Shown here: positions 56,583 through 59,979 of the stretch, piece by piece
How the letters are laid out: each line of letters opens with the position of its first letter
How positions within the stretch are numbered: the stretch's first letter is position 1
Assembly: GCA_044229975.1 (NCBI GenBank)
Contig: JBGARZ010000006.1
Location: 384,001 to 448,000 of the forward strand
Origin: Polyangiales bacterium
GTDB taxonomy: Bacteria; Myxococcota_A; Polyangia; Polyangiales; Ga0077539
Direction of reading: 5' to 3'
Length of the DNA stretch: 64,000 bases
Notes under the pieces: generated by a model
What the model was told of the DNA's origin: nothing
Databases searched by the model: none
Seen by the model: only the letters and a program-made list of their open reading frames with translations
Position numbers and translations under genes: made by a program

Positions 56583-57353
56583 CTACCCCCGCGCTGTCAG
56601 CCCGTTGCGCGCGAGGTACCGCTTCGCCGCGAACCACATGACCCACGCCACCACCGCCGCGCCCACCGTCGCGGGCGTCTGCCGCGTCACCGCGAAATAG
56701 AACGCCACCCAGAACACCGCCGCGAAGGCCAGCCCGGCCCCGAAGCGCCGCTTCTCTCCCGCCGACACCGCGGGCACTGGTGACGGTGCCACCTCCGTCT
56801 TCTTCGCCGTCTTGATCACGCCGTCGACCACCACGAGACGACCGTCGCGCAGCTTCGCGGCGAGCTCGTCGAAGTAGGTCGTGAGGTCGGGCGCGATGAC
56901 GGTGCGCTCCCAGTTCTTCGCCGACACGCGAATCACCTGACCGGCGGTTCCGCCATCGGGTGGGTCAAGGTCGAGGCAGTAGAAGTCACTCGCGCCACCG
57001 AGGAGGGCGAAGGGAATCCAGCGGCGGTTCCAGTACTGCGCGCGCACGTGGCCGACCGCGGGGGCGACGTTGCGCTCGCCCGAGTAGTGCGCGTCGAGCT
57101 GCGCGATCATCTCGTCGCGCTCCGACACGATGGCCGCGAGCGGCAGGTACTGAACCATCGGAAACAGGTACTCGCTCCCGCCGAACTCCTCGCCATCGTG
57201 TTCACGCCAGGTCGCACGAAACGCATCGGGTAACGCGACCCCGAGGCTCTCCTCGAAGCGTCGCAGCGCCTCCTCGTCGACGGGGACTCCGAGGCGTTCG
57301 AGCCCGCTGGGAAGGTGCTCGCGCATCCACGCTTCGATTGGTCGCCAGGACAT
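56583..57353 (-). CDS. SMI1/KNR4 family protein with a C-terminal TM hairpin
   Basis: FEESLGVALPDAFR, HDG, WNRRWIPFA, CLDLDPPDGGTAGQVI, IAPDL. Confidence 0.88.
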   Translation of the reverse strand: MSWRPIEAWMREHLPSGLERLGVPVDEEALRRFEESLGVALPDAFRATWREHDGEEFGGSEYLFPMVQYLPLAAIVSERDEMIAQLDAHYSGERNVAPAVGHVRAQYWNRRWIPFALLGGASDFYCLDLDPPDGGTAGQVIRVSAKNWERTVIAPDLTTYFDELAAKLRDGRLVVVDGVIKTAKKTEVAPSPVPAVSAGEKRRFGAGLAFAAVFWVAFYFAVTRQTPATVGAAVVAWVMWFAAKRYLARNGLTARG

Positions 57354-58954: not shown

Positions 58955-59000
58955 CCGCCGCCACTCCCGCCGCCACCCCCGCCGCCACCCCCGCCACCCC
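58955..59000. repeat. 12-bp tandem repeat (ccgccgccaccc) ~3.8 copies, upstream of the Rpn-like gene
   Basis: Seen directly in the sequence. Confidence 0.85.
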
Positions 59001-59031: not shown

Positions 59032-59046
59032 TGGCACGCGCCGCGC
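59032..59046 (+). promoter_or_regulatory. Possible sigma54 promoter (TGGCACG-N4-GCGC)
   Basis: Perfect -24 box with GG-N10-GC spacing, about 15 bp before ATG 59062; -12 box is non-consensus. Confidence 0.35.
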
Positions 59047-59061: not shown

Positions 59062-59979
59062 ATGGCGACGCCGTTCGACAGCCTGGCGAAGGAGATCCTC
59101 GACGTGCTGTTGCACGACCTCGGTCAACTGGAGACCGAAGTGGACGTGCCCGCGCTCGCGTCGCAACGCTCGGACGCATTCTTCGTCCCCGACCCGTTGC
59201 GGGACGACGAGCGTCGCGCGTTGGGGCTGCTCGGTCGCATCACGGCGGTGGCCGCGCTGCTGGAGCCCTTCCACGGAGCGCCGAGCCTGGACGACGTGTT
59301 CGCGTGCTTGCGCAAGATGCTCAACCACCGCCACGCGATGCTGTTGGCGAAGCGTCCCGTGGCAGAGCGCGCGTGGTTGTTCTGCGGCAGGCGCCCCGAC
59401 GCGGCTCTTCGCGCGCTGGGTGCCGTGCCCGCACCTGGGTGGCCTTCGGGCGTCTATCACTTGAGCGTGGGGATGCCGATGTCCTTCGTGGTGCTCTCGG
59501 AGCTGGAGCAGACCGACGACACGTTGCCGCTCCGACTCATGGGCTCCGGTGCGACGCTGACGTCAGCCCTGCGAACACTGCGCGAGCGCTACGGCGTGTT
59601 GCCGCGTGGGCGTGCGCTGTTCGCTGAGGTGGTACAAGTGTTCCTGGCGGCGCGGAAGCGCGGCGAGCGACTCACGGAGGAGTTCATGGTCGATCTCACC
59701 GAAGCCTACGAGTACATGGATCGCCAGCACGAAGAGGGCCTCCAGAAGGGCCTCCAAAGGGGCCTCCAGAAGGGCCGCGAGGAAGGCCGCGAGGAAGGTC
59801 ATGAGGAGGGAGCCCGCGCGGTGCTGGCCCGCCTCACAGAGCTGAAGCTGGCGCGCCCGCTGACCGACGCCGAGCGCGCCGTGATGCTCCGTCGGCTCGA
59901 CCTCGACGGCGTCGAGGCCGTAGGTGTGGCCCTGCTGTCTCTCGATCGCGACGCCCTCGCGAGCTGGCTCACCGGGTAA
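59062..59979 (+). CDS. Rpn/YhgA-like PD-(D/E)XK-related protein
   Basis: FDSLAK, TEVDV, RSDAFF, LLEPF, GVY, SEL...TLPLRLMG; C-terminal EEGLQKGLQRGLQKGREEGREEG repeat. Confidence 0.75.
   Translation: MATPFDSLAKEILDVLLHDLGQLETEVDVPALASQRSDAFFVPDPLRDDERRALGLLGRITAVAALLEPFHGAPSLDDVFACLRKMLNHRHAMLLAKRPVAERAWLFCGRRPDAALRALGAVPAPGWPSGVYHLSVGMPMSFVVLSELEQTDDTLPLRLMGSGATLTSALRTLRERYGVLPRGRALFAEVVQVFLAARKRGERLTEEFMVDLTEAYEYMDRQHEEGLQKGLQRGLQKGREEGREEGHEEGARAVLARLTELKLARPLTDAERAVMLRRLDLDGVEAVGVALLSLDRDALASWLTG

Follow-up and report, generated by a model that had tools for sequence, protein, structure and literature searches.

Does the 305-aa gene at 59062..59979 (+) of the window, by which we mean the whole 64,000-nt stretch of DNA analysed, encode a nuclease and, in the same reading frame, the inhibitor of that nuclease? 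An earlier note on this DNA had described the gene as Rpn-like and had placed a strong Shine-Dalgarno sequence (SD), GGAGGAG at 59676..59682 (+), before an in-frame ATG at 59686. Both are present in the sequence and in the list of open reading frames: the ATG is codon 209 and opens a small ORF of 97 aa (59686..59979, +) that begins MVDLTEAY. This product spans the repeats and the helical tail, as had been claimed: seven 4-aa repeats (EGLQ KGLQ RGLQ KGRE EGRE EGHE EGAR; 59734..59817, +) begin at its residue 17 and its model is mostly helical. We lean towards the view that the locus is a gene-within-gene toxin-antitoxin module, in which the 305-aa long form, a predicted toxic DNase acting on invading or damaged DNA, would be held by its own 97-aa C-terminus, the predicted antitoxin. 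Intragenic toxin-antitoxins of this kind, RpnL/RpnS, are known from E. coli RpnA-E and RpnP2 (COG5464, PF04754), as described in passages of Zhong et al. 2023 (PMC10400941).

The N-terminal domain (residues 1-200; 59062..59661, +) was compared with PD-(D/E)XK folds, a check that had been proposed, and such a fold is what the model predicts. The AlphaFold2 model of the 305-aa protein has a mean pLDDT of 85.5, and PD-(D/E)XK nucleases make up most of the best 35 VIA-align rows and top Foldseek rows, the closest fold match being the repair nuclease NucS/EndoMS. The candidate catalytic residues are D6 (59077), D38 (59173), E68 (59263) and K85 (59314), all on the + strand. In a set of 93 full-length genes dereplicated at <80% identity to 72 homologs, D6, D38 and E68 are conserved in 69, 72 and 66, respectively. 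The alignment by hhalign, of weak overall score, puts them in register with D11, D63 and E82 of RpnA, which are required for RpnA activity according to passages of PMC5350276. The motif had been read as D...EPF, and D38...E68-P-F is indeed what stands there; column 70 is F in 51, Y in 11 and A in 5 of the 72 homologs, not Q84 of RpnA and not the canonical K. R94 of RpnA aligns to the non-conserved A81, and K/R85, one turn away, may substitute for it. Because the equivalents of Q84/K and of R94 are missing, the nuclease activity is uncertain.

The description as Rpn-like stood for the predicted fold, the D/D/E register and the architecture, but not for membership in the Rpn HMM families. The nuclease domain passed no cut-off of PF04754, PF12784 or TIGR01784, and none of 63 N-terminal domains matched the Rpn Pfams at E<=0.1; the TIGR01784 score was 15.6 bits against a cut-off of 52.1, over the repeats only. 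Since every Rpn HMM cut-off was failed, this is by sequence profile a nuclease family apart from Rpn, a distinction judged by HMMs, while Zhong et al. define Rpn via COG5464 in the passages that give their definition (PMC10400941). A profile link to Transposase_31 was weak (probability 11%, P 0.0027), although above 20 of 20 shuffles, and the ESM Atlas returned unnamed clusters from Cyanobacteriota and Bacillota, one of them 24% Transposase_31 with 129 shared features, which is a lead only. A FliH identity was rejected, the Pfam, NCBIfam and PADLOC matches (FliH, Yae1_N, C3a178) all being driven by the repeats. A PDB sequence search gave a single match at chance level, and a screen of 7,995 candidates found no scoring longer or fused form, though as evidence this is weak.

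The case for a second product is carried by the DNA around codon 209. The SD duplex energy of the ATG at 59686 is -9.5 kcal/mol against an assumed canonical anti-SD, used since the 3' end of the 16S rRNA could not be recognised in the assembly; the form scored is the one that we take to be canonical. An energy of -9.5 kcal/mol or lower is found at 2.8% of a sample of 8,439 in-frame ATGs inside genes, drawn from three contigs of this genome, and at 12.9% of the 124 internal ATGs that follow at least two Glu, and the 5' start of the 305-aa gene has no SD comparable to the internal one. Conservation of SD and Met in homologs, which had been named as a check, was found: the strict column holds 46 ATG and 8 GTG in the 72 homologs, and within ±2 codons there are 60 ATG, 10 GTG and 2 with neither (ATG occurs in 9% of background windows), so that 70 of 72 have ATG or GTG with a strong SD. 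At the column the SD energy averages -8.6 kcal/mol, versus -3.4 at 336 other internal ATGs of these homologs, -1.6 at M160 (itself conserved, n=39) and -3.6 at the 5' starts. The observed SD beats synonymous recoding in 56 of 72 homologs, and much of the signal comes from the Glu codons, because the recoded mean is already -7.4. Within the SD window, rare AGG makes up 5 of 16 Arg codons versus 5%, AGA is also enriched, and GGA makes up 5 of 9 Gly codons versus 11%.

As a further test, a clade outside this sample was used. Seventeen of 76 database proteins lack Met near the column, and most of them form one clade that carries Val. GTG was predicted beforehand and the DNA was then fetched; 26 of 33 loci were examined, 3 short or broken ones were dropped and 22 genes remained after dereplication. 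Their column holds 16 GTG, 4 ATG and 2 neither; all 16 Val codons there are GTG, versus 39% elsewhere, and the SD energy is -8.4 versus -3.3 kcal/mol. Three fetched members from cyanobacterial plasmids (168-179 bits on the N-terminal profile) all have ATG at the same place, with SD energies of -6.9, -5.6 and -9.2 kcal/mol, the gene's best internal SD in two of the three. The homologs are related, so p-values for conservation of start and SD are overstated; the signal nevertheless recurs across deeply separated clades of the tree.

A promoter-like motif, T(G/T)nTA(A/C/G)(A/G), was found by inspection 44-77 nt upstream of the internal start, and we liken it to an extended -10 promoter. The local copy, TGGTACAAG at 59630..59638 (+), is a candidate internal promoter for the small ORF; it uses a rare GTA codon and is without the final T of the consensus. 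The motif, picked post hoc, is present in 31 of 70 homologs, compared with 31 of 1,078 control windows, and is missing in the other 39; in the 31 it is always formed by rare GTA, CTA, ATA or TTA codons. In the out-of-sample clade it occurs in 20 of 22 genes versus 2 of 339 control windows. The 2 genes without it, which are one related group, also lack a start at the column and have the changes E68D and K85R; the coincidence is suggestive only. In the subclade of loci L247, L250 and L065, the start at the column and the motif are lost and a Met remains two codons downstream, with E68D, K85R and AT-rich 5' promoters. TGGTAC as an internal sigma54 box was dropped, its -12 spacing being unsuitable. 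The exclusive use of GTG and of rare TA-bearing codons cannot have its source in protein-level selection. Judging by these codons, the internal start is under DNA-level selection in the family, and the one at 59686 is very probably used. Internal transcription starts are present in E. coli rpn genes, in the passages of PMC10400941 on that point.

What the small protein may be is suggested by its fold and by its occurrence elsewhere. Its model (pLDDT 90.6) has one long helix and three short helices; Foldseek gave nothing significant, 7TH0 (RpnAS) was not among the matches listed, and DUF4351 was matched by 2 of 34 small ORFs of the family (best E 3.6e-6). Repeat number varies from the seven found here to three in an 85%-identical paralog on contig C4 and two in an orphan on C23; the repeats begin at or before residue 20 of the small ORF in 48 of 63 repeat-bearing homologs, and 9 of 72 homologs have none by the pattern used. 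Elsewhere in this genome, the small domain is also the C-terminal part of a true PDDEXK_2 Rpn and of a Transposase_31-related family. Two orphan small genes occur in the genome (G000), one of them with an ortholog in genome G001. At C23:459591 the small ORF and its SD stand directly after the stop of another gene. At C39:125894 the upstream repeats are joined to codon 152, the nuclease core being deleted, and the G001 ortholog (77% over 1.4 kb) has a different deletion end. Both of these small ORFs keep 97 codons (dN 0.143, dS 0.399, dN/dS 0.36, Fisher p 0.002), a sign of selection on the orphan, although the divergence could be older than the loss of the nuclease part. By analogy, the 97-aa product is likely an inhibitor.

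Two side observations concern the same tails. The C39 orphan (L151, G000:C39:121500-129500) adjoins genes that resemble a type VI secretion sheath and ClpV, by sequence appearance only. Internal SD+ATG candidates (-7.9 to -10.7) also stand ahead of the repeats in three other families without annotation, whose proteins of ~300 aa end in repeats, 8-aa ones in one family (L138:282-1166, L140:243-1142, L141:235-1152, L144:1865-2770, L152:1781-2680); from sequence, these families are probably additional gene-within-gene modules.

Upstream of the gene, the 12-bp tandem repeat that had been reported was recovered by TRF (CCGCCGCCACCC, 3.4 copies, 96% matches, 58955..58995, +); its units could be sigma54-activator binding sites. 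The candidate sigma54 box was upheld as GG-N10-GC (TGGCAC-N-GC, -24/-12, 59032..59046, +), but it lacks the TT before GC of what we take to be the sigma54 consensus and numbering. The predicted transcription start, ~59058, would make the long-form mRNA almost leaderless. The whole element, that is, 3-4 CGCCAC repeats spaced by roughly one helical turn, a spacer of 33-34 nt and TGGCAC, has 12 sites in G000 (C36:66198(-), C25:22532(-), C13:63(+), C2:62344(-), C24:175408(-) and seven more; L137-L145), and at 9 of them the start codon is 29-32 nt away from the T of the box. Three precede genes of the nuclease family, four precede genes of two other unannotated repeat-tailed families, and the others, by Pfam, a PDDEXK_3 nuclease, recA, radC, a 77-aa gene before a ComEA-like HhH gene, and a 194-aa unknown. 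Among 31 genomes the strict pattern was matched 47 times and its reversed control once, and the pattern occurs in 8 of 8 same-genus genomes; loose searches were at noise (28 against 29 in the control, and 27 against 30), only the strict pattern separating, and a PWM trained on the 12 sites added none. At 30 loci fetched from the strict search, recA lies downstream in three other genomes and radC in four (one call each confirmed by Pfam, the remainder made by near-identical N-termini), so that the element is common to recA in 4 genomes, radC in 5 and the small gene (77 aa in G000) in 3. The tie to recA and radC had gone unnoticed in the earlier note. It is lineage-specific, because it stands upstream of only 22 of 72 homologs; in G000 it precedes 3 of 6 full-length paralogs. 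That transcription depends on sigma54, that an enhancer-binding activator takes part and that translation is leaderless would follow from general consensus rules.

G000 has two recA genes, one with this element and the other sharing with lexA a GTTCAG motif, which we take to be the LexA box. The gene probably falls under a LexA-independent DNA-stress regulon, as far as upstream sequence can indicate; recA1 of M. xanthus is reported as LexA-independent in passages of PMC12288472. A full competence regulon was rejected, since dprA and comEC are without the element.

Several upstream features were seen besides. Half-sites appear inverted in other genera (CCGCCATGGCGG). The repeat and box element precedes L179:1579-2184 (Pfam Uma2, PD-(D/E)XK); the Uma2-like L147:1865-2788 has a similar N-terminus and upstream repeats, and the Uma2-like PD-(D/E)XK gene L035:7704-8327 is found close to a family member. 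Where the sigma54 element is missing, family members often have GCAAC...CGA or AATGTCA...GTG in common upstream, possibly ECF-sigma promoters (L072, L075, L076, L090, L091, L092, L108; L013, L073, L077, L094, L098).

The company of recA, radC and the small gene before the ComEA-like HhH gene is also what would be expected if an inhibited nuclease is real but its job is recombination, repair or DNA uptake, as a nickase licensed by this regulon. NucS/EndoMS as best fold match, the weak defence clustering described below and the finding, in passages of PMC5350276, that RpnA promotes RecA-independent recombination fit that explanation as well. We nevertheless consider it unlikely: dprA and comEC lack the element, matches to the N-terminal profile occur in only 6 of 151 genomes across the phylum, and an arms race accounts better than housekeeping for the copies, which are divergent, number up to dozens in a genome, vary in repeat number and include broken and orphan ones.

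The distribution is indeed uneven. G000 has six full-length paralogs and two C-terminal-only pieces, and the full-length profile was matched in 24 of 24 same-family genomes searched; the matches per genome range from 1 to 46 and count fragments as well as other families with the same tail. Named relatives are Myxococcota/Polyangiales MAGs, and the N-terminal profile matches 2,031 clusters at 50% identity in Myxococcota and Cyanobacteria. For P0034, a divergent homolog, there are matches in 40 plasmid records, which are annotated as hypothetical and are cyanobacterial wherever a name is given; no relative was confirmed in viral contigs, nor in phage records (one query). Flanking genes are unrelated from copy to copy. 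Among 147 neighbours at 19 loci, PADLOC recognised type I RM genes at a single locus, a methyltransferase at a second one and, besides, four candidate singletons. The remainder were generic kinase, helicase, ABC or other domain-level matches, so that these 19 loci lend no support to defence-island clustering. The neighbour at 56586-57326 (-) in the window matches PADLOC candidate PDC-M40A (E 2e-29) and presumably resembles an SMI1/KNR4-type immunity protein. Outside genome G002, whose copies were left out for their indel-prone appearance, five copies are broken by frameshifts or stops, all within the N-terminal two-thirds, which is non-significant.

Singletons in unrelated neighbourhoods, many copies, frequent decay and plasmid carriage would equally suit a selfish addiction cassette, in which promoter, toxin and internal antitoxin insert as a single gene that kills losers at no benefit to the host, and orphan antitoxin-like ORFs could neutralise incoming copies. 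Such a cassette would need no host stress promoter, however, and passages of Zhong et al. report phage protection by RpnP2 and found no transposition hallmarks (PMC10400941); we regard it as improbable. A catalytically weak or dead N-terminal domain, or an internal start that is not used, with the C-terminal piece serving only as a dimerisation or regulatory module, is very improbable: an aromatic residue replaces the K/Q of ExK, Glu-rich linkers yield SD-like DNA by default and one small clade lost start and motif, but the three acidic residues and K/R85 are near-invariant from Myxococcota to Cyanobacteria and protein selection cannot explain the exclusive GTG and rare TA-bearing codons.

The toxin-antitoxin module is thus the reading that we retain, with wide copy-number variation and the 40 plasmid records in its favour. 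Against it stand the members without a start at the column (2/72 and 2/22), the motif missing in 39/70, F/Y/A at position 70 with no counterpart of R94, RM genes at only 2/19 loci and the upstream element at only 22/72 homologs. The earlier suggestion that Rpn logic holds in this divergent family gains from the conserved start, the repeats, the orphans and the promoter-like motif, and loses from the lack of Rpn HMM membership and the weak defence context; the family would work like Rpn, yet matches neither the Rpn HMMs nor ExQ. In such a module the small protein would be made in excess from its own promoter and strong SD, pair with the long protein through the repeat-bearing helix, with repeat number setting specificity by analogy with RpnL/RpnS, and block the DNase. 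DNA stress, from phage or other foreign-DNA entry, would induce the near-leaderless sigma54-type long transcript together with one of the two recA genes and radC; the long form would outrun the inhibitor, and the freed nuclease would cut DNA. Whether the role is anti-phage is in our view an even question.

A literature search found no paper on the family or the upstream element, most subscription journals being outside its coverage. Myxococc, Polyangi, Sorangium and Cyanobacteria had no matches in two of the three supplement files of Zhong et al. (PMC10400941), and the third file or the GitHub data could include members. Koonin's commentary asks whether intragenic antitoxins exist beyond Rpn and how the toxin is released (PMC10400984). 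The family bears on both questions, with codon-level evidence for an internal start outside the Rpn HMMs and a release hypothesis in which a long near-leaderless transcript, induced via the recA/radC sigma54 regulon, rises over a separately promoted small protein. More tentatively, a family of >2,000 clusters outside the Rpn HMMs could have a modular antitoxin: one small helical domain, bringing its promoter and start along, would have been attached to several unrelated PD-(D/E)XK nucleases, which an undescribed sigma54 enhancer regulon of this myxobacterial lineage would fire with recA and radC. If true, a LexA-independent DNA alarm would couple recombination to a battery of self-inhibited nucleases. 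Members on plasmids of cultured cyanobacteria make the family testable now.

With the restriction-endonuclease-like folds of NucS/EndoMS and AF1548 the nuclease domain shares 14% identity over ~100-120 aligned residues, which implies no common function. A PF12784 gene on contig C19 has the same C-terminal domain (60.6 bits, small-ORF profile), so that the family is like PDDEXK_2 in its tail and unlike it in an N-terminal domain without a PF12784 match. As in the LexA-independent response of Myxococcus xanthus with RecA1, there are two recA genes, and here one shares GTTCAG with lexA and the other has the upstream element; sigma54, radC and comEA are absent from the passages of that account (PMC12288472), and the recA counterparts are matched by number, not by orthology. 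Unlike Rpn, the nuclease domain matches no Rpn HMM and has EPF/EAF/EIY instead of EHQ, the small protein is 75-125 aa against ~50 for RpnAS, defence clustering is weak and the sigma54-like promoter is common to recA and radC; the family is described here from sequence and models. Like RpnL/RpnS, it has ~300 aa with a predicted N-terminal PD-(D/E)XK domain and D/D/E in the same register, an internal SD and start with a predicted internal promoter, variable 4-aa repeats soon after the internal Met (8-20 residues in Rpn, residue 17 here), a helical small domain (DUF4351 in some) and a patchy multi-copy distribution, and its orphan small ORFs parallel the orphan RpnSs genes described in passages of Zhong et al. 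(PMC10400941).
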